DNA from: Daphnia carinata | Lineage: Eukaryota | Assembly (NCBI RefSeq): GCF_022539665.2 | Contig: NC_081331.1 | Span: 10,168,001-10,232,000, forward strand | Direction: 5' to 3' | Length of the DNA stretch: 64,000 nt | Part shown: one piece after another, positions 7,651-45,398 of the stretch | Position numbering within the stretch: position 1 is the first letter of the stretch | Layout: every line of letters starts with the position of its first letter | The notes under the pieces: model-generated | What the model was told of the DNA's origin: nothing | Seen by the model: only the letters and a program-made list of their open reading frames with translations | The model's database searches: none | Translations under genes and position numbers: made by a program

Positions 7651-8643
7651 TCAATTGGGATATAAAGTTTGGTGTAGGGAAGGATGGGGGCCGTTAATGA
7701 CGGTCGCTCGAAACTGAGTCTGAAAAGATGAGGGGATTTGGTAATTATGAATGGATACTGGAGGCGCTGGATTTCCTTTTTGAAGTTGATCTTGACCATA
7801 CACCAGATTTGGATTGGGTACAAAATTTACATTTCCGGAATGAATCTTGATTTGAATTTCATGATGAATTTCGTTGAGTTGACAAGAGACCCTATCAATC
7901 TCCGCTTTGACGTCTTGAATTATCCGGAAGAGGAAACCCAACATTTCGAAGCCTAACCGTTTCTCGCAAACAGAGTGCCTCAGTAAGGAGACATTCTGGC
8001 CCATGAGAATGCTGCCAAGTGATAATTGTTGCCCAAAGACTACGGGACTCGATTGGTGGCATCCCGCGGCCGGTGTAGGCCGCGCTGGTGCATCGATTTT
8101 CACTTTTGGCGCCCTTTCCTCTCTGCCCGGCATCGAGTGTTGATGCTCGGAGCGAGACGGCCTCGCTTTCCCACAATCGGGCGAAGGCGATTGTTGGATA
8201 GAAGAGGGTGTAGTGATTGTTGACGCTGAGGAGCTTGAAATCCTTTCGAGTTGCTGAATAATTCCTTTTTTGCGCAGTTCTTCGTCTTGGGCTTGAGCTC
8301 GTCTCAGCGCCACTTGCTCCGCATTGATCTTTCTCTTTTTATTGGTGCCGTAGCACAACTCGCACATACATTGTCGCCAGGGACAGTATCTCTTGTGGCC
8401 TTTGAGTGTGCTTATCGTTTGGTGATTCTTGCAGAGGGCACAGGTTGGATGCCGCTGTGACGCACCATTGCTGTCATTCATCGCGTCCACTCCTTCGTTA
8501 CGGATACGAAAACTTGAAACGCTGCTGGATCCTTCTTCATCGCCATCCATGATAATCATGTTAGAAACGTGGTGATGGCGCTCTTTAGCTGAAATCGGCG
8601 ACGGTGCCCCAACGGACAATTCTTCTGCGTCGCTATCTGACAT
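7651..8643 (-). CDS. dsx1: Doublesex (DM-domain transcription factor), Daphnia Dsx1-like, single coding exon, 330 aa
   Basis: DM domain RHPTCALCKNHQTISTLKGHKRYCPWRQCMCELC...QVALRRAQAQDE and a C-terminal dsx dimerisation (OD2)-like segment LGFEMLGFLFRIIQDVKAEIDRVSCQLNEIHHEIQ. An uninterrupted CDS with acceptor AGs just upstream of the ATG (8651-8650 or 8665-8664) fits Daphnia dsx structure. The Dsx1 versus Dsx2 call rests on recalled length. Confidence 0.92.
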   Translation of the reverse strand: MSDSDAEELSVGAPSPISAKERHHHVSNMIIMDGDEEGSSSVSSFRIRNEGVDAMNDSNGASQRHPTCALCKNHQTISTLKGHKRYCPWRQCMCELCYGTNKKRKINAEQVALRRAQAQDEELRKKGIIQQLERISSSSASTITTPSSIQQSPSPDCGKARPSRSEHQHSMPGREERAPKVKIDAPARPTPAAGCHQSSPVVFGQQLSLGSILMGQNVSLLRHSVCEKRLGFEMLGFLFRIIQDVKAEIDRVSCQLNEIHHEIQIKIHSGNVNFVPNPNLVYGQDQLQKGNPAPPVSIHNYQIPSSFQTQFRATVINGPHPSLHQTLYPN

Positions 8644-28202: not shown

Positions 28203-31200
28203 TTATGGAAGGTATCCCAAGGAATTTTCTAATTCACTTCGCTTCGAGAAACCATTCTTATTGTTCCGGTTTGCGCCTCGAAAATGCATCGAGCTGTAAG
28301 CATCATCAGTGGAAAGCTCAGACGCCGTGTCTTCGGTTGCCTCACTGTCATCAATGACAATATCCGTGGTTTGGTTGAGCTTGATGTTGGAAAACATGGC
28401 CGCTATTTCGGTCGTCTTCTTAGCCGAAAGCGCACCTTCTGGCACCGCCTTCGTGATGGAACGATGGTGGTGTTGACTGTGATGAGTCGATCCAGCTGAT
28501 GAGGTTCCTCGGTAAACAACCTTGCCCTTGGGGTCCACTGCCGACACCATCAGAAACTGGAATAATAGGCTATTATTACAAGGAATCCAATCAAGGATAA
28601 AAAGAAACCAAAATAAGGAAAACAAAATCAATAAAAACAAATTCGTACTTTATTGCCACGAAACGAGTTTTGTGACTTTAGTGATCTATCGCTAGAGGAA
28701 TTCGAATTCCTCCGGCCCTCGCTAACGGAACTCAGATTTTCCAAGCTGAAATTCCTCGATGTCCGTCCGCTGCTGCCCGTCGAATCATAACTTTGGTATC
28801 CGACCGATTCCGCTGGGCTGGTTTTACGCTGCTGTCGTTGCTGTTGGCTGGAAATCGAAACTGGACCGCGGACGAAACTGTTGCAACTCGTCGAATCCAT
28901 TTCCGTCTCGCTTGATAAATACGAACTACGGCTTTTCCTGCGTAAAATCTCTGGCTGTTTAGCGAACGAACTTTTGCCGTTAGCCGACTTGTGGGCCGGC
29001 TCAGTCATGGCTACCACATCCGAATCTAATGACGTGTCACTTAAATAAGAGCTTAAACTCTTTTGCCTCAAAGAAGATGCGCTGGACAACGTAAAGCGGG
29101 TAGATGGCGCGGAAGGCTTAGTTGTCGTTGCTGGAGCGGAATGTTGCAAATTAGCCGTATTTCTTCGCCAGGCAGTTAATGGAGACTCGGCTCCGGATAA
29201 AGCAGACCAGGACGTCATACTAGCCGATTTTCTTGCATAATTCGGACGATTCTTTGTAGGCTTAATGTGAGGTGGATGTCTGACGGCCGGTTCGGGCAAA
29301 CTGTCGTGGCTTGTGTCTGTGTCATCAGAGTCGAGACGGATGCGATAAACTGGAGCCCCGCTCGACTTGCTGATTCTCTTTAACGAGCAGTAACATCGTT
29401 CAGCGTCGCTGTAATCAGTGGTGTCTTGCGACTGTGTTTCGTTGAATGAACAATAGCATTTATGTGAACACGATTCACTGTCATAGCCGCATTCAGAACA
29501 GGATGCACTGTAATCAGGCGCTTTGTTGACGATGCTGTTCTTGTTGTTGGCGACAACAGACCTCGGTGGCAACGGCGTCTTGGGATTGAAATGCTTGGTT
29601 GGGAAAACCAATGGAGCCACGGAAACAATGGAGGGCTCCGGGCTCTTAATAATTTTAATGTTCTTAATTAGCTGAGGCTCGGATGCTTGTTTCTCTTCCT
29701 TGGTAACAGAGTAACCGGTGGATGCGGAGCGGGCAGCGCCCCATTTCGAGAAAGACTTTTTGGTGGCTCTCAAGACGCTACTGATGCGTGAAGAACTGGT
29801 ACTGTGCTCAGCGTCCGAATCCCGTCCGGCCGATTTATTGGTCCCGTTTCTGGTGATATCTGCTTTGGCTTTCGACTTGGTTTTGCTCAGATTACTCGTC
29901 TGGTGCCTCATTATGTTCTTGGAGCGCTGGAACATCTCGTCCTTGCTCAGTGTCAAGGCTAGTTTCATCAGCATCTCTTTGTAGGCCGGCGTCAAATCAT
30001 TGAAAGACATTCGGTCTTTATTGACTATTGTTTTCAGGACATCGTCTACACTCCGAACACCTTCATGTTTCTGCGCAAAGTAAGAAATGCGAATATTAAA
30101 AAAAAAAACCGAACTTTAAATAGAATCATTAAAAATTGTACCTTTAATTCTTCAAAAAGTTCGGAAAAGGAGTAATTTTGTTGTGGAACGGTCATGAAAC
30201 TCTTGCTTCGCGGAATGGCTACTTTGGTGAGTATGTCTCCATTGTTACCGTGATCCGGCCCGTCCAACCCATCTGACGTTAATACCTCGCCCAAATGTCG
30301 CTCAGACACGCTACGTTTAACAACAACACGGCCGGTGTTACTCCGTTGGCTAGCGTTACGCATACTGCGACGTAAATTTGCTTTGCCTTGCGAAGATCTC
30401 GTTTTATTTTGACTTCGTCGGATACTCTTCCGTCTTTCAAGGCCTCCATCAAGAGGCTTTGAGGATTTCTTGCGTCGCGGCGGGCGAACGGGCTGCGTGA
30501 AACTTGAAGTGACTGAACTCTCGCTCCAATTAGAGACACTGGTCGAGGGCGAGTAGATGGGTTGAGCAATTTTGTTAACGGGAGTAGCAGATGTCGGCGG
30601 AGGTGGTGGTGCCTGTTGTTGCGGTGGTTGTTGCTGCTGTTGCGATGATTCATTGTTTTTCATATTGCGCAGCAGGGCCTGGTAGAGATTAGCTGCAATA
30701 ACAATGGCGTCTTCGGGATTGTCGCAAACGAATGCGTGACATTCCAAGTTCTTTGGAGCCTGCGTGTTGCGCATGACGCAGGTAAACAATGGCGGGTGGA
30801 AGGTGGGTGAAGTCACCCATTCTCCGTCATCAGCCGGGCTCAGCGGGTGGAAAAGATTCTGTTTGTCCTGATTCTCCGGATCGCAAATGAGCGGCAAAAA
30901 GGCAAACTTTCGCCCGCCGGGCTCGGAACGTGCCACAAACTTGACGGCCGCCCAAACGGCAATAGTGGGAAATGGGTTTAAGATCTCCTTAGGAACAGAG
31001 GGTCTACGATTGTCTGACAAATAGTATTGGATTTTCAAACCGGCTGGAGAAATTTCCATTGTACCGCGGTAGATTTTATTCCTGTTCGCATTTTCATGCT
31101 GCCGATATTGGCTATAAAGCTCTTTCAATGGAAACTGGAGCGACTCCAGGCTTGTAGCTCGGCCTGGAAGGGATAACGAGCCAAGATAATCAACTTTGTA

Positions 31201-34918: not shown

Positions 34919-37364
34919 CTGCTGACATCAATACAATGCATGCTGATTTTTTGTGAGATCCAATCAGTCCTCCAGGACAAAAAAAGACACGGTACCAAAA
35001 GGACAAGGCCCAGCTGTCGTCCAGGATATTCACTTCCGTGGAATCTGGAAAACCGTTTACATTCTACAATTAACGAATTAAATTGCGGGAAAACACATAC
35101 AATACGACCTTGAAAATGCAAGTTTTTTTTTCTTCTCCTCATTCCCTTGACTGATGAAGAATTTTTGCGATGCCAATGAGGAGGGGCTATTGTCCGTCTT
35201 TTTACGTGACAGCCTTTTTTGGATGGTGTAAGATCCACCGAAGAATAAACCTAAGGAATGAAGAAGTAAATGACTGAGTTATAGGTAATGTGTCCTGAAT
35301 CATCAGAGCGTCTTCTTTCTCAACATAGCTATTGAAATGAAAAATTCCAAGCTGGGCCAATTCTTCTTTTACGTTGTTATTCCCGTCTTCCGTCGTAAAT
35401 CGCTCAGTCGTAAATTCGTAACACGACCCTCTTAAAAAAAAAAAGGCGAGATTCATCTGATCCGATCAATTCAAAAGCTACTTTTTCCTTGAGGGATGGG
35501 AAGCGTATCTACTACTAAACATGACTATTTGGAAAAGTCCACAATAAAAAAAAAAATGATACAAACCTTGTCCATCTCTTCCCCTTCTTTTATTTATTTA
35601 CATTTTTTTTAAAGCCGATAAAACCAGTGACGCTCCAGGTGAAGTATCTCGTCATCTCGACTGGAACCTTGCGGTCAATACGAAGGTTGAGCAATCTCGT
35701 AAAGGTTCCCAGCCCCTGGTGTTTCCAAAGAGAGATTCACTGCTTATTACCGCTACTACAAATATGGAAAAGGATAAGAATGCCATGATGGATAAAAAAA
35801 GAAATCGATGAGGTTGTCGACACAAATCGGGTACGCCTATTTTCACAAATCGGAAAAATTCCACGCTAAATCCTCTTCCTTTCCGGCCCAATTATTCGCT
35901 CCTAGAATCGGAAAAACATTTTTGCTTTTATCCATCCCATCCGGATGAGGAAGAATCTAAAAAGAATCAATATCCTTGTGGGAAAAGAAGAATGGCGACG
36001 GTATGTCGTATAATTACTTGTCCGATCTTGTGCCAATTGGCGTTGAGAATTGTAGAGGACCATCCAGACCGGAAAGGCTTTTAATAGAAACAAACGTCCA
36101 TAAGAGATAAATCACTTATTGTAGGTTAGATAACAGCAATGGAAATTTATATCTTTACATGTGAAAGAATGGCAGAATTGGTCGAGGCCGGCAAGGATGA
36201 GGAAATATTAACGGGCATTGATTACTAGAGTGGGAAAAAAAGCGGTATACACTTGTATAAAAATGTCGTTTCACTGAAGAGATGCACATTTCTTTTGTTT
36301 TTCTCTGACTTTTTTCTGACCGTTTGTGGCTTTTTTCTCCATGCGGACGTCAGCCGGTTCTTTTCTTCTTAGACGGGCAAAAACGTTATTCGCAGAAAAA
36401 ATGTGAAGAAAATGCATTTTATATTTCTTGGGACGTAAGTACAGTAGAGGCTGGTTTTTTTCAAACATCCTGCTGGCCCCAGTGTTGAGAAATCACATAA
36501 CTAGACCCATTGACGTTCGGGAAACTTCTACGACTGAACAAATTCTATTATCTGTTACGTCTAAGTTTTGAAGCAAAGATGGTTGTAAAACGCAACGAAC
36601 CAGAGACGACGACGAAGGAAGTAAAATAACGGTGCAACGTCCGCTATCAACATCCATCTTGCTTTAGACCTAGTCTTTGAAGACATTTATTGAAAGCAAT
36701 CATCGATCGTAGTAATGTTCGGTGATTTAGCAAAATCCTAACTCAATAGCTGTGACTTCGATTGGTACAAGTTTGGGCGTATAACCACATCAAACGATGG
36801 TTTTCCTGGTATTCGAAACTTTTTTTTTAACACAAGTTTAAAGCAATCGAAGTATTTTTAATCAAAAACGCGCAGCGAAACCTAATAATAACAACGGACT
36901 ATCTTTACAACGTTGATGCTCCACCGGTTATCCATAGACATTGTATGCGTGGCGACAAGGGACGTCTTCGTTTCCCAAGTCGGAAACACCTGAATCGCAC
37001 ACTCAACGCACACAGAATCCCATAGCGAAATTGTAAGCTCACCTGAAGCGTTTCCAATTCCCACCATCACCCGATGTCGGTGACGAAAAGCAACAGCGGA
37101 AAGAGGGGGACAACAAACGTATCCTAAGCTTTTTCGTCGTTTCCCTATACGATCAGATTTAATACATACTATGATGTACATAAACATTTGTTTATTTTCT
37201 TTGTACTTTTTACTTAACAAATTTTTTAGTGATTTATACGGGATTAGAACGCAACACTCGGGAGAGCTCAGCGATGTTTTAGTGTGTAACAAAACAAAAA
37301 TAAAAAGAAAGCTTAATCTGAGTTTTGAGACTTTTCTATCACATGATAAAAAAAAAGCGGACGA

Positions 37365-37439
37365 AAAAGGCAAAAACATCAGGACATGGAAGATTTGTTA
37401 ATTAAAAAATTTTTACTCTCACGCCTTCATAAACCTTTT
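37365..37439 (-). promoter_or_regulatory. SECIS element (type II-like) in the 3'UTR of the SelH gene
   Basis: Minus strand AAAAGGUUU-AUGAA-GGCGUGAGAGU-AAAAAUUUUUUAAUU-AACAAAUCUUCCAUGUCC-UGAU-GUUUUUGCCUUUU. It has the AUGA/UGA core, an ~11-bp helix II, apical AA, and helix I AAAAGGU/GCCUUUU, about 150 nt after the stop codon. Confidence 0.85.
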
Positions 37440-37589
37440 ACTCAGGCCTCTTTCTTTTCTCAAGTGGTAGATATGCTCTCTTCAACTGAATCTTGTACAT
37501 TGGACGATCAGTGCAAGTGAAAGTGCAATAAAATTAACGAACGCGAACAATGAAGACAAAAAATCTAAACCTATGCGAATTAACGACTC

Positions 37590-40209
37590 TTAAGCTAGGG
37601 CTTCCTTTAAGCCAGCAATCAAAGAATTAGGATCCGGAAATTTGAGACGTCGTGGCGGACCACGCTTAATTCCGCTCCATAATATAGTCTCTGAAAAACA
37701 AGATCAAATATAGGTATGTGACCTTTTGGGCAACCCCAGCTAATCTAAACGAAAATTGCCATACCGACACCATGGGAATTGGTCACTATGATTTCGAACG
37801 CCCCCCTACGCGGAGCCGAAACATTCATTTCCACCACCAGGTCAGCGCAATGTTGGAGGAACAGCTCTTGAATTTCAAGAGCCTTCCTCTTGAATACGGA
37901 TCAGGATTTGCTATGCCATAACCACACTATCACGGACAACCTTTCATGCAAACGAAAGTAAGGTATGGTGGCACTTACCAATGTTCCATTGCGACCCGCG
38001 ATGAAGCGCGAGGCTTCTTCATGTTGCCATTGTCATTATTTTCTCCTTCAGAATCCTACGGAAACGAAGGTTCAATATTAATTTTTATACTAAACGTGGA
38101 AACTGGAAAACAAACTGACCCGTTTTTTTGCACGCGCCCATCTCGTCGATGCCCCTTTTTTACCAGCAGCTGACAGTTTCTCGTGTGTGCTTGGTTCGTC
38201 TTCCTCCGATTCACCCGCGGAATTCTTTATACCAATAACCAATTTAAAAAAACAGACCGACATATAGACTCCTTAACTAAAAAACTTGCTTGTTGTTGCT
38301 GAGCGTGTGCCTTTCGTGTCGCTGCTGCCTTTCTCCCCGCCTCGACCCTAATTTTATGCAATCGGGCAGCTTTTTCATCTTCATTCTCGTCACCCTCTTC
38401 TTCTTCAGCCGAACCCTTGGAAGAAAAATTTAATGAAAGATGGCTCATTATCTGTGAATTACCATACGATGTTATACCTCGCCCTTTTCGCGAGCCCATC
38501 GGGCTGAGGCTCCTTTTTTGCCGATTGCCGACAATTGTTCGTGTAAAACCGCATCGGCCTCTTCGTCCGACTGCACTCCAGGATCCTATTGAGAAATAAT
38601 CTTCCATTAGAATGTACTTCTCAACTGGATACATGATATTTAAAAATAAACCTGCTCCTTCAGCCGTTGCTTACGTGTCGCCATTGATTTCTTTCCTGCT
38701 TGTACTCTGATCTCATGCATCCGGGCTTCCTTCTCGTCTTCGTCTTCTTCTTGTTCTTCACCCTCACCCTGATCGCCGCCCTTAACATAAAGATACGGAA
38801 TTAGGCATACATTACTCGATACAATGATATCGCCATTGATTTCGCAAATTAGACGCTGACTAATTAACGTCAATATTTACACCGTCATGCTTACTTGTCC
38901 TTTGTCGTACGACCATCTCGCTGCTGCGCCTTTCTTACCGATGGCTGACAACTGGTCGTGCAGGACTGCGTCAGCCTCTTCATCCGACTGTATTCCAGGA
39001 TCCTTAAAAAAAAAAAATGTTTTCTGTTTAAGCAAACCTATTGGATTTGAATCTTCCAAGTTGGTAACCTGTTCTCTGATATGTTGTTTTCTTGTTGCAA
39101 TTGCTTTCTTCCCTGCTTCTACTCTGATATTGTGCAACCGTGCTTCTTTATCCTCTTCTCCTTGATTCTCTTCCTCCCCCCCATTGTCCTTTTCAAGTAA
39201 AAAAAAAATGGTAAGTAAGAACTGGTACAGTATGCTCCCATGATTGTTTTCGAAAGTGAAAGACCAAAGGAGGGAGGATACTGCGATGGTCAACCTACCT
39301 CATCGTTGTCCCGCGACCATCTAGCTGAAGCTCCTTTTTTACCGATGGCTGATAACTGATCGTGTAAGACAGTGTCTGCGTCTTTGTCTGATTTGACGTT
39401 AGGATCCTACCAAAAGTAAGATTATGGAATTATAAGTCCAACCTTCTGCTATAAATACTATACAAACCTGTTCTTTAATGTGAGCCTTTCTTGTTGCAAT
39501 TGCTTTCTTCCCTGCTTCCACTCTTATTTTATGCATCCGATCTTCTTTATTTTCTCCTTCTCCTTCCTCTTCTCCTTCCTCTTCAAAATTTTCTTCTTCT
39601 TCCACAGGTTCCTCTTGAAATTCCTCTTTATACGCTTCTTTGTCATCTTCATTTTCTTCGTTCATTTCATAGTCTGGATCAGGACCCTTGCAAAGAATAC
39701 CAACATTACCAATAAGCACAAAATTACAAGCAATTGGTAAATCCAATGCTGAACTCACTCCTTCTTGTTCTTGTCTTTCTTTTGACCACCTCACTGAGGC
39801 ACCCTTCTTGCCAGCTGACGCAAGTTTTTTGTGAGTGCTAGGTTCTACATGTTTCCCTCCTGATTCCTGCTATAGAACAAAACATTGCAATTGTTGGTAG
39901 TAATAAATGAAGGTCACCATTTCTACTAACCTTTTTGCTTTTATCAAACTTCATTGTTTTCTCTTTTTCTTCTTCATCAGCCATTTCTTCAAGTTGTTTC
40001 ACCTTTGTGTCCTTTCCTTTTGGTTTAGCAGCAACCAATTTAGCTTTTGCCGCAGCCCCAGCAAGGGGTGGTTTTCCGTTTGAAGATTTTGATTGTTCGG
40101 AATTCCAGGATTTCGATTCTGGGATAACATCTTCAATTATATCATCTGCTCGGATGGCATCCGCAGCTTTCTTCTCTGCAACTTCTGCAGCACGTCTTCG
40201 CTGGGACAT
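37590..40209 (-). CDS. SELENOH: Selenoprotein H (SelH/BthD family) with a long repeat-containing N-terminal extension, ~578 aa, 13 exons: 40209-39931, 39869-39759, 39686-39468, 39406-39299, 39188-39069, 39002-38895, 38780-38652, 38585-38478, 38415-38290, 38224-38120, 38055-37979, 37910-37765, 37690-37590
   Basis: The spliced C-terminus reads VAMEHCKS-UGA-SVFKRKALEIQELFLQHCADLVVEMNVSAPRRGAFEIIVTNSHGVETILWSGIKRGPPRRLKFPDPNSLIAGLKEALA*. This aligns by eye with SelH (IEHCxxU...PRRGSFEV...LWTGIKKGPPRKLKFP). TGA is at 37903-37901 and all exons keep frame. Confidence 0.88.
38120..39869 (-). repeat. Exon-level tandem protein repeat, alternating B-A-B-A-B-A-B-A-B
   Basis: Type B (5 copies, 35-37 aa) contains HxxLSAxGKKGASARW. 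Type A (4 copies) is an acidic run followed by R[LM]HxIRV[EQ]AG[KR]KAxATRK. Each repeat is one phase-0 exon. Confidence 0.9.
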
Positions 40210-40670: not shown

Positions 40671-41625
40671 TATGGTAATCCGTTTTACCCCCCAAAAAAA
40701 AAAAATATTGTTATTTTTTCAGTTTTATACTATCGCCATCTACCGATCAGATTTCTAGCTAATTCTCTACATACACTTACCGAATATTTATGCTGCATCG
40801 CGCTGGCGCTGTAGCGTACTGGCGCTTGGGCTTTTTGTACATACACTGACCGAAAAAAATTTTAAGCCCGACTAAATAAGGCCGACTTTTTGTTTTTTAC
40901 GGTTAATTCAAAAAGCAGAAGCCTGATACAAAAATATACCCCATTTTCGTGATCAGCGATCAATTCAAATCGGAATAATGTATTTAAAAAAAATCAAGGA
41001 TTTGAAGAAAATTGGAAAAATGAGAAGGCCTTCTCACTTTTTCAATTTTGGCAAAATTTTAGATTTCGCTTTAAATACATAGCTTCGATGCAGAATTGAA
41101 CGGGCAACACGAATATGAGGATTTTTTTCTCGTGGGACTCATTGCTTTTGAATAAATCGTAATAAAAGGTTAAAGTTGGATTAAAAAATAAGCCCGACTT
41201 TACCTTTCGGGCTTAAAAATCGTTCCTATTAAAAAATAATATCATTAAATCTCGTTAACTATACAGGATTATCATTCAAAATTAACCAAGGAACACGAAA
41301 ATGGAATTTGTTTTCACGTAGAGTATATACCTTTGGAATAATCTAAAATATAATTTTAAGTGTGTGTGCGAAACGAAACCATTACTAGCGCGCCAGTACG
41401 CCACAGCACTAGCGTGACACATCAAACTTCTTTGATTATTCAAAAACCATAAACTCTACGTGAAATCAAATTTCATTTTCGACTTCCTTGTTAAATTTTG
41501 AATCAGAATCATATATAGTTATGTAGATTTAATGATATTATTTTTTAATAGGGAAAAATTTTAAGCCCGACAATATAAACCCGACTTTCTGCTGTATCGC
41601 GAGAACGGATTGCCATATTGCCATA
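40671..41625. mobile_element. Non-autonomous TIR DNA element (~950 bp)
   Basis: Termini TATGGTAATCCGTT and AACGGATTGCCATA (right end carries a duplicated TTGCCATA), flanked by ATTTTT on both sides (40665-40670, 41626-41631). The first ~80 nt resemble 46282-46360. No ORF; internal AAGCCCGAC repeats. Confidence 0.65.
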
Positions 41626-41786: not shown

Positions 41787-42530
41787 ATGGTTAGATTCAA
41801 GAACCGGTAAAATATTTGTATTCAACAATATTAACCTTAATAATTTTAACTATTTCCGTCTCTTTAAAATGGATAAATATTGAGCAATGTAAATGAAGAT
41901 TCATTTGAAGAGAAGTTTATCGTTTGGGTCTCTGATGTATGTTCTACTTGCTCATTTGATTTTTACAATTTTATCAGGTATTTTACTACAGAGATCACAC
42001 CCCTGGATGATGGACATACTGCGCAACCTCTAAATTTAAAAACGTACGATATCCTGAAATCGGTTCTTGCTGCAACTGAACAAATACATGGAGAGTTTGG
42101 GGCTGCAGCAATTAAGAATGGATTAGAGGGTATATTTTGTTTTTCTTGGCTATCGTAAAAGCAGAAATTAGAAAATATTTGCAATCTCTAGTCAAATATT
42201 CCAATGAAAGTACCCAAATAGCAATAATCCGATGTAGACATGGCCCACATAGGCTTTTAGCCTCATCTCTTCCTTTCTTGTCCAGTATTGGAAAAAGGAA
42301 AGTTCAGCTTCAAAGTATGTATACAGGGGCAACTTTGGTAAAATGCTATAAATTCTTAAAGGTTAGTATGATACAAGAGTTGTTTAGGTAAAGAATTCTT
42401 TTCTATAAGTTTTGTTTCTTTGTAGAAATTTCATCAGGAAAAAATTAATGAAGCTTTGAAAACGTGCAGAACAGAACAAGAAAAAAAGAAAGTTTTGGAA
42501 ATTATGTCCAAGACAAAGTATGGATTGTGA
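41787..42530 (+). CDS. POP5: RNase P/MRP subunit POP5, 4 exons
   Basis: Spliced MVRFKNR|YFTTEI...HGEFGAAAIKNGLE|VKYSNESTQIAIIRCRHGPHRLLASSLPFL...GATLVKCYKFLK|KFHQEK...YGL*. The MVRFKxRY start is diagnostic. Confidence 0.9.
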
Positions 42531-42581
42531 AACTTCTGAAAATGGCCAATACACTTTATTTTCAATTATATTTCTATATTA

Positions 42582-43323
42582 TTAGTGCCTCATATAGTAG
42601 TCTATTGCAGTAGAGAATGCTGCAAATCCTAATGCTCCTACAATTCCTGGTTTAAGTCCAGCTCTGAGACCAATCAGTCCACCAGTGATTCCACCAGCCT
42701 ACAATTAAAGAATTTTTATTTAAAAGTATGTTGTAGGTTATTTCAGAAATACATACATAAGTTCCATTTTTCCAATCTCCTTTTCCTCTATACTATAAAC
42801 AAAATAATGCATTATGCAAACAATGGTATTTACAGCAACATAAACTGTACTCACAGATTCAATGGTGCACTCTACTGCTGAAAACATAAGACCAACAACA
42901 GCAAAGTTTTTGGCATAGCTAAGGGTAGAGAATTTTAAATCCCTGAAGATTTCTCTTGCTGACTGTTGGGGTGCATCAGGTGCTGTGATATTTGGACTGA
43001 CACTGGCACTGAACAAACCCAATGCAGCTCCCAAACCGTACCCTGCAAAATTCATTAAAAAGCTGCAAGATGTGGAGCTTGTTTCTAAATAAGAGTAATT
43101 ATGAATTACCCATGACACTTGCAACGAGTGACTTGAAAGCACATGATTCAAAAACTGCTTCTACTCGTTTCTCATCAACACTTTTTATGTGAATTGGACC
43201 AACTGTTCTGGGGATGATAATTTGTTCACGATATTTGCAGTTGTTTCCGACGAAGTATTTCATTAAGGAATCCATCTCCTTCGGCGAAAAACCAACGGAA
43301 GAATCTGTTTTCGATTCCTCCAT
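42582..43323 (-). CDS. TIMM22: Mitochondrial import translocase subunit TIM22, 4 exons including a 36-nt exon ([12 protein letters not shown])
   Basis: [29 protein letters not shown]...[31 protein letters not shown]...[37 protein letters not shown]. Confidence 0.93.
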
Positions 43324-43901
43324 GTTCCGTCAAAAAAGTAATCAGTTTCGATATGTAGTTACTGACACACAACCACTTTTAGACAATTCCTACGGCAGCG
43401 CTAACGTCAGTTATTTAAAAAATCGTTACTATTACAAACTAGATAAGTTAGAATGCCCGTAGAAATGGGCACCAAAGATGAGTTCTACGAAGAGCAACAC
43501 AGGATTCGGAGTGTAGTAATATCGTCTGCTGTTTGGCCCAGCATTGCCCATCACAGATAAAAATTTCAAGCTAACCAATCCAATCGTAACGTTACAATAG
43601 TCTGCTGCTGCAATATAGTATATTTACGGAAATAAGAAACCCCCAAAAAATGAAAGAAAAGACAAGAAATGAAGGAGAAAGAACCTTGAATTAAGACTCT
43701 TCCCGATTCAATGGAACGTAGAACCACGGAATGTTAAAAACACATTTCGATCACCAAATAAAGTTTCTTGATTAATATAACTGAATAGAAAATTATGACG
43801 CCTACATTTACCAACTGAATAATGACAAATATATTTACGCCCAAGGAAACCCAGAACGAACTTGGAATTTTGCCTTCCCTTAAGAGAAGAATTAGGCATT
43901 G

Positions 43902-45398
43902 AGTTTCTCGTTGATGAAGGTTTCCAACTTGACTGCGTCAACTGCGAATTTGCGGATGCTAAAATTTGTAGACGTATTAGTTATTTTCTTTAAATGACTA
44001 AATGTTAGCTATCCTAGAAACCAAATTACCCATCACTGAGTTTGTCAGTAGCCATCTGATCTTCATTTAACATCCATCGGAAAGCCTTCTCGTCCAAAGA
44101 AATGCGTTCGAGATCGTAAGATTTGGCTTGTTCTGCATCTAATTTTCTAGCGACTGTTGTCGTACTAGCATCTAGTTCTTCCAGCAACTTCGGGCTAATC
44201 GTTAAAAGATCGCATCCTGCAAGAGCAATTACCTCGCCTACGAATCGATATAATGGGTTACCTCTATTCACAAATTTACATAGCGTTTGGGTATACCAGT
44301 GTTTCGGAAGGATGCTCCCATCACAACAGTTTTATAGCCAAATTTTTTATAGTAATTATAGATCTGGGTGACCGACTTTACTCCAGGATCATCTTCCGGA
44401 GCATAAGATTTGGTGGAAGTGTTGCTAACATACCTGATGACGAGAATTTAAAACTTTGTTACCCATTTGTACATCTCAATTGTTTTTTACCAATCCAAAA
44501 TGCGACCAACGAATGGGGATATCAGCGTAACACCGGCCTCGGCACATGCAACCGCTTGACAGAAACTGAACAAGAGCGTTAAGTTGCAGTGAACATCGTG
44601 CTTTTCCTCCAGTTCCCTGCGTGATAGCATTTGTTAAAACAAATTAATAAATAAAGGAAACACAAGATGTTACATTGTATAATATAGATAATAACTTTGA
44701 TTACTTTGCTGCCTGAATTCCTTCCCAGGTCGAGGCCAATTTAATAAGAACTCTTTCTTTGTCGATACCCTCTTCGGCGTACAGCTCGATAAGCTTGAGA
44801 GCTTTCTTCACGCTTCCTTCTTGGTCAAAAGAAAGTCTGTGGACGAGAAAACGAAAGTTAAGGGACATAATTCAGTATTCACCATCCACATGGTGGTAAA
44901 CCACCTTGCATCCACTTCGGTAGAAACGCGACCAGGAACAATTTTCAATATTTCAACCCCAAACAAGACAAACAGCTTATCCATCGTTGCAGCCAACTTT
45001 GCAGCATTGTCTCTAACACAAGCAGACATCAGAATTAATTTGAATACTTAAGACTGATGCTTCAATGCATTGGTTGACATCGCAATTGTGTTTTTTAGAA
45101 TACCCATCCTGCTTTTTGCCATAATCAACAGCTTTCTGAACAAGATGTTGATATTGAGGCAGGGTGGCAGCAGCTAACAGTAAAGATGGATTGGTGGTTG
45201 CATCAGTAGGTTTGTACTTGATCATGGCTGTAATCAAAAAATGTGTTTACTAAAAGTGATTTGCCAACTGATTGTCAAGAATTCCAGGCAGTTAAAAATG
45301 ACAATAAAAAAGATTTTAATAACAAGGGCTCATTTACTTTCAAAATCTCCTGTGTCAGCCACCACTACTGTCATGGTCTTTAGTTGTTCCAATGCCAT
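43902..45398 (-). CDS. TALDO1: Transaldolase (multi-exon; 5'UTR exon ends near 45546)
   Basis: [113 protein letters not shown] motifs. Confidence 0.96.

Follow-up and report, generated by a model that had tools for sequence, protein, structure and literature searches.

A gene on the minus strand of the Daphnia carinata DNA analysed here (a stretch of 64 kb, called the window) carries an in-frame TGA at 37903-37901 and, in its 3' UTR, a stem-loop at 37365..37439. This raises the question of whether the codon ends translation or is decoded as selenocysteine. It was concluded that the stem-loop is, with a probability of roughly 93%, a conserved SECIS-type element of a selenoprotein H-like gene which likely directs UGA 37903-37901 to selenocysteine. 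The assignment as a SECIS element follows from its anatomy, its position and its conservation.

The coding sequence (37590..40209, minus strand) was reconstructed as 13 exons giving 578 codons with a single internal TGA. This codon 500 (37901..37903) is the predicted selenocysteine of a C-K-S-U motif, and the true stop codon is a TAA at 37590..37592, found at the same position in an orthologous contig, L001. The model matches XP_057371701.1 and its last three junctions were recovered in spliced contigs. Intron 9 (38225..38289, minus strand) is of the GC-AG type with the donor GCAAGT. The junction of exon 9 at this GC donor agrees with the public protein (P0026) and with loose ends of contigs; the matching intron of L001 starts with GT. 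At the end of exon 12 (37771-37765, minus strand), two possible GT donors lie 6 nt apart, of which the contigs use the downstream one; the residue pair encoded in between is missing from a D. pulex protein (P0032).

Up to the UGA, the translation agrees residue for residue (1-499) with D. carinata XP_057371701.1 (P0026), a protein of 499 residues annotated as uncharacterized. This entry terminates with C-K-S, as do D. sinensis KAI9565690.1 and D. pulex XP_046447076.1 ('nucleolin-like'). In an older D. pulex annotation, the sequence beyond the UGA appears as a partial protein of its own, P0032, with 75 residues. The three public proteins are what would be expected if the UGA were a real stop, the product a charged repeat protein of 499 residues, and both the SECIS look-alike and the Rdx exons relics or chance. 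One point against this very improbable reading is that truncation of selenoproteins at the UGA is a known fault of automatic annotation (PMC3753652).

The end of exon 11 and exons 12-13 encode a C-terminal Rdx / SelT-W-H domain (TIGR02174; 37590..37998, minus strand, the 5' limit being approximate). Exon 12 alone matched TIGR02174 with an E value of 4.9e-6 and Pfam Rdx (PF10262) with 0.01, both below the cut-off, and the spliced orthologue P0032 passed the cut-offs of both models. The Daphnia protein displays both the CxxU and the G-x-F-E-I(V) motif, and CxxU and G-x-F-E-I define the SelH / Rdx family (PMC10650576, in part). Among 62 homologues, three have a specific name, which is selenoprotein H in each case, two have the generic name selT/W/H, and the others are unnamed or hypothetical. 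Among SelH, SelW, SelT and SelV, these names point to SelH as the family nearest to the Daphnia domain. The column of the UGA holds a Cys in one homologue (P0083) and a Trp in four, where we infer a TGA read under another code. Alignments A5 and A6 were made without P0033 and P0035 (unrelated repeat proteins) and without P0002 and P0034 (unspliced gene calls). The structure model of P0032 reached a pLDDT of 81; its top Foldseek row was 2fa8, a SelW-related structure (TM 0.62, E 0.81), and no row was obtained at E<=0.001. Sequence searches of the PDB gave no match at E<=0.001. It is likely that this gene, listed as a shorter protein of no known function, encodes selenoprotein H.

Conservation was followed in L001, a metagenome contig that was the one orthologue among 345 candidate stretches and the sole full orthologous DNA compared. 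It shows about 67% nucleotide identity with the window over the last exons, and the sequence C-K-S-TGA is kept. After the UGA, 37 of the 51 differences fall on third positions, and of 77 codons 26 differ synonymously and 16 non-synonymously. The third-position bias and the excess of synonymous changes indicate that the codons after the UGA are under purifying selection. Further downstream, a block at 36703-34002 of the window is 68% conserved in L001 (2903-5596), hence synteny is kept; six ORF pieces of this block gave no match to Pfam.

Transcripts of a relative (organism A) were also considered. Twenty-four sequencing runs were listed, with only 0.07 of words in common, and four of them (three of organism A, one of a crustacean metagenome) were compared at 80% likeness. 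All four delivered contigs free of introns over the last exons. The complete list of differences in the UGA exon amounts to 8, 8, 8 and 4 in the four runs, none of them in the TGA. In run X14, record 2 (1576 nt) extends from exon 10 to 37364 and includes the UGA exon as well as the last junction and the SECIS element, which places the UGA and the SECIS element on one spliced molecule; the type of this run was guessed, and the intron-less contig is the basis for calling it spliced mRNA. Runs X6 and X2 cover the SECIS element on separate contigs and the contig of X24 stops inside it. Record 3 of X2 (6628 nt) continues for 6 kb beyond the 3' UTR and enters the conserved downstream block.

The frame after the UGA is open, spliced and under purifying selection, and the domain that it encodes matches TIGR02174, all of which argues against a real stop. 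The original prediction that TGA 37903-37901 encodes selenocysteine instead of being a nonsense mutation agrees with the CxxU motif, the Rdx domain, the TGA kept in L001 and in all four runs, and the purifying selection; as far as sequence can tell, the codon is a probable selenocysteine codon.

The evidence for the stem-loop at 37365..37439 (minus strand) consists of the Rfam SECIS_1 match, a constrained fold, the arms shared with L001 and the spliced contig, and the stem-loop is probably a type 2 SECIS element with a weak A/U apical mini-stem. Its strand and its distance of about 150 nt to the stop had been predicted correctly: it lies on the minus strand and starts at 37439, exactly 150 nt past the TAA (37592-37590). 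On the spliced mRNA the UGA is located 397 nt upstream of it. The predicted AUGAA...UGAU core was recovered at 37426..37430 (37430-37426, an A plus the 5' core) and 37378..37381 (37381-37378, the tandem G.A partners). The first of these is identical in L001 inside a run of 17 nt (37433-37417) and the second inside a run of 10 nt (37386-37377). The core AUGA/GA with tandem G.A pairs (UGAN/KGAW) is thus present as UGAA/UGAU after an A in both the window and L001. In a fold constrained to leave the core and three A's unpaired, helix I consists of 7 pairs (37439-37433 with 37365-37371) and helix II of 9 pairs (37425-37416 with 37382-37392), the latter interrupted by an A37419.C37389 mismatch and a bulged U37384. 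Both helices had been foreseen, as had an apical AAA, which belongs to five unpaired adenines at 37410..37414. In the constrained fold the adenines follow the AUGA by 12 nt. The apical AA lies 12 nt after the quartet and 32 nt before the 3' GA; the SECIS descriptor of PMC2375036 allows 10-13 nt and 15-39 nt for these two distances. In the window as in L001, position -3 of the element is a U (37433 in the window) and position +2 a G-C pair (37425-37382).

The apical mini-helix was proposed as AAUU/AAUU. This pairing appeared only in a suboptimal fold (+0.5 kcal/mol) and would be broken by a change of organism A at 37409; it was disfavoured, as a register between a U-run and an A-run fits the variants better, and the proposed AAUU mini-helix is probably in the wrong register. 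The likely mini-stem (37394..37408, minus strand) pairs 37408-37404 with 37394-37398, a register inferred from the variants of organism A and from the mini-stem of L001. At least eight positions of the SECIS element differ in organism A; those listed affect the apex, the 3' internal loop and the final pair of helix I. With the pairs assigned manually, 37407 and 37395 both differ, which turns U-A into C-G, and a change at 37397 mends a mismatch in this register, from U.C to U-A. An inverted repeat of 19 nt (89%) links 37408-37390 with 37225-37207 and could pair the apex of the SECIS element with the far 3' UTR; this AT-rich repeat is probably due to chance.

Taken alone, the SECIS element is weak evidence and only modestly beyond chance. 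Rfam SECIS_1 covers 37438-37366 with 20.1 bits, compared to a gathering score of 35, and with an E value of 0.48 over 4227 families, which by our own arithmetic corresponds to about 1e-4 for a single family. The gathering score is a cut-off of the database and not a biological definition, and SECISearch3 uses its own model. The covariance model SECIS_1 matches at this place, with a score under the 35-bit cut-off; at gathering level, the Rfam scan of the 64-kb window returned no match. Further low-scoring Rfam matches in the vicinity of the UTR (6A, DGCR5, RUF1, L20 leader, mir-241) were taken as chance. Folding was no better than that of shuffled sequences, the z-scores being 0.03 over 96 nt and -0.83 over 75 nt. 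The upper stem-loop reached -4.2 and the whole 75-nt element -9.3 (constrained) or -11.9 kcal/mol, compared to thresholds of -3.7 and -12.6 kcal/mol (PMC2375036, in part), and the L001 element, at -11.2 and -13.6, beats both, with energy parameters that differ from those of the original program. A SECIS descriptor of our own, built from the pattern in PMC2375036 and used without the energy filter on the whole structure, found 8 sites in 128 kb, 37439-37365 among them; out of 2000 shuffled versions of the 420-nt 3' UTR, it matched 5. No second descriptor match was found elsewhere in the 3' UTR. The weak Rfam score and folding are points in favour of a real stop with a SECIS look-alike. For the same reasons, namely a score under the Rfam cut-off and a stability no greater than that of shuffles, the claim that the element 'independently' argues for selenocysteine was too strong: it supports selenocysteine, and convinces through its place and its conservation.

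That conservation is concentrated on the arms. The 3' UTRs of the window and L001 align with 48% identity over 465 columns, 65% inside the SECIS element and 44% outside, and the two longest identical runs are the SECIS arms, namely the 17 nt at 37433-37417 and the 10 nt at 37386-37377. When columns were permuted, a 17-nt run occurred in 13 of 20000 cases and both runs in 1 of 20000, figures that ignore local clustering and bias of the aligner. Arms that are the best-conserved stretches of the UTR are not what relics or chance would leave downstream of a real stop. The architecture of helix I, internal loop and helix II is retained, with 7 + 9 pairs in the window and 6 + 10 in L001, where helix I has different letters and still pairs (6 pairs). 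The apical mini-stem of L001 has 6 bp and, as type 2 SECIS elements are defined by a mini-stem (PMC2761289, in part), the element is probably of type 2. In L001 the AAA lies 15 nt after the AUGA, outside the range of 10-13, and 31 nt before the 3' GA. Our descriptor did not detect the L001 element, and SECIS_1 was absent among the five Rfam matches of L001 at E<=10.

No letter changes over 17 nt of the 5' arm, which exceeds what pairing requires, and the 6628-nt record of X2 extends far past the 3' end. Both would suit another regulatory element that merely resembles a SECIS element, such as a protein or microRNA site or an overlapping transcript. This is exceedingly improbable, since conservation extends to both arms and the core, the altered helix I and mini-stem still pair, the stretch is free of TGA on the plus strand, and the upstream in-frame UGA needs a SECIS element, for which the UTR offers no other descriptor match. 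A candidate poly(A) signal AATAAA lies downstream of the SECIS element at 37191..37196 (minus strand), is unique between the stop and 36900 and is also present in L001 at 2409. Weaker poly(A) hexamers occur at 37456, 37442 and 37417, none of which is found in L001.

A second RNA structure was detected in the coding region when the sequence directly downstream of the UGA was inspected specifically. A hairpin of 15 bp (37856..37889, minus strand; 1716-1749 in L001) starts 11 nt after the UGA and is a candidate selenocysteine redefinition element. In both species, every one of 200 shuffles is less stable than the hairpin (37889-37856; z -4.2 to -5.8), and synonymous recodings reached its energy in only 4 and 2 per 3000 for the window and 0 and 1 per 3000 for L001. 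With -20.5, it is the most stable of 563 51-nt windows of the CDS, one GC-rich window reaching -19.7. Three loci in the 64 kb fold this stably within 34 nt, the hairpin included; the other two are at 8058-8091 and 28440-28473. Third positions differ from L001 in 2 of 12 codons inside the hairpin and in 35 of 65 outside (Fisher p 0.018), and organism A has none of its 8 differences there (p 0.12, not significant). The three differences between the window and L001 cluster at the bulge and the 15 bp are kept. With only two sequences, 14 pairs are invariant and no two-sided change was seen, meaning that the hairpin is supported by constraint and not by covariation. Redefinition elements have been described for SEPN1 and SPS genes (PMC4561486, PMC3541580, both in part). 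By analogy, the hairpin has a somewhat better than even chance of acting as such an element, disfavouring termination and supporting a SECIS element with weak marks.

The hairpin is also the main argument for a different decoding, in which it would cause the UGA to be read mainly as another amino acid and the SECIS element would be degenerate, a situation like that of insect SPS1-UGA. In stability the hairpin exceeds the SECIS element by far, helix II of L001 is longer than the usual range, and such hairpins can promote read-through independent of selenocysteine (PMC4561486, in part). SPS1-UGA is nevertheless described in that source as being without a SECIS element; here, two diverged lineages retain the core, the apical A's and both helices. 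The UGA is moreover the catalytic U of CxxU, aligned with Cys in P0083, and Daphnia pulex has tRNA-Sec. Decoding as another amino acid is thus judged improbable, and selenocysteine remains the preferred reading. For D. pulex, two tRNA-Sec genes and 16 predicted selenoproteins have been reported (PMC5330540, in part); ARAGORN found no tRNA in the 64-kb window.

Decoding as selenocysteine would proceed by the eukaryotic pathway of SBP2 on the kink-turn, EFsec and Sec-tRNA, as outlined in parts of PMC2500217 and PMC2761289. The tandem G.A core would form a kink-turn bound by SBP2, which would recruit EFsec and Sec-tRNA to the UGA, and the product would be a 578-residue protein with a redox-active C-K-S-U site. 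In humans, all six weak SECIS elements, that of SelH included, carry the marks U at -3 and G-C at +2 (PMC2761289, in part). Weak recoding by the Daphnia SECIS element is only a guess by analogy, because each mark is common (65% and 62%, same source) and the rule is human. The coding hairpin might compensate for such weak recoding. In a more speculative and rather unlikely scenario, the weak SECIS element and the strong hairpin would set the ratio of two products in a selenium switch, a stable 499-residue form free of selenocysteine and a 578-residue redox form, which would share lineage-specific, exon-duplicated repeats of nucleic-acid-binding or hydrophilin-like nature.

These repeats are encoded by exons 2-10 (38120..39869, minus strand), nine phase-0 exons each with an acidic stretch and a basic H-x6-G-[KR]-K-x4-R repeat; the counterpart in L001 is at 241-1483. 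The extension of about 490 residues is 43% charged with a net charge of -26. Nine copies are present in D. carinata and D. sinensis, four in a D. pulex isoform and, by our reading, seven in L001, and the order of the repeats also differs between species. A profile of the repeats retrieved unnamed proteins of other organisms with acidic and G-K-K repeats (P0013, P0015, P0019), and an Atlas search with the repeats gave no usable match. A Pfam TIM21 match of P0026 (28.4 bits, above its cut-off of 24.1), covering only the charged repeat stretch, was treated as compositional, as was a YL1 match (E 0.52). Human SELENOH is a 14-kDa protein with an N-terminal RKRK/AT-hook-like segment (PMC10650576, in part), is nucleolar and binds DNA without sequence preference (PMC10650576, PMC10646972, both in part). 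By analogy, the repeats most likely amplify the nucleic-acid-binding N-terminus of SELENOH, a hydrophilin-like role being the rival reading. The long extension with its varying copy number might show what SelH binds.

Upstream of the gene, the intergenic region 40791-41570 contains nested inverted repeats, with 140-nt arms that are 84% complementary and 35-nt arms at 40791 and 41390, possibly the remnant of a MITE. The neighbours at 41877-45050 are members of the Rpp14/Pop5 family (plus strand) and of the Tim17/22/23 family (minus strand) and a transaldolase (minus strand).

The SECIS element corrects the annotation of a gene that is cut short or divided in the records of three Daphnia species, under the names uncharacterized, hypothetical and 'nucleolin-like'. 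Daphnia is a genus used in selenium ecotoxicology. In the literature consulted, no SECIS element of a Daphnia selenoprotein H was found; the supplements of PMC5330540 and PMC2500217 and SelenoDB may list Daphnia SelH.

SECIS elements, SelH and redefinition elements are known kinds, and the Daphnia SECIS element itself is ordinary. It resembles type 2 elements of Rfam RF00031 (SECIS_1) in its core, helix I, internal loop, helix II and apical A's 12 nt after the AUGA, as well as in its location in the 3' UTR on the sense strand. It differs in that it is under the curated cut-off, that helix II contains a bulge and an A.C mismatch, and that the mini-stem is very weak in the window and strong in L001, whose 5' arm is 3 nt longer. 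The coding hairpin is like the redefinition elements of SEPN1 and SPS2 and the hymenopteran HRE, being a stable stem-loop just 3' of the selenocysteine UGA under synonymous constraint. Compared with the SEPN1 element, whose spacer is about 6 nt, the Daphnia hairpin has a spacer of 11 nt and no covariation. Vertebrate SelH is among the genes with a predicted redefinition element, and a conserved hairpin of this kind in an arthropod SelH merits follow-up. The proteins retrieved with the repeats resemble LEA_5 / Con-6-like hydrophilins in their E-A-G-K-K-A-A and G-K-K-G-A-x-x-R-W repeats, with P0015 giving a sub-threshold LEA_5 match, whereas the Daphnia repeats match no LEA or Con-6 model and are fused to an Rdx domain. 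With selenoprotein H (SELENOH; Drosophila SelH/BthD), the Daphnia protein has in common CxxU, G-x-F-E-I, one UGA and one SECIS element, and with the named SelH proteins a C-terminal W-x-G...G-P-P-R...K-F-P segment. Unlike the 14-kDa human SELENOH, it has 578 residues, with an acidic/basic extension of about 490 residues containing nine repeat exons.
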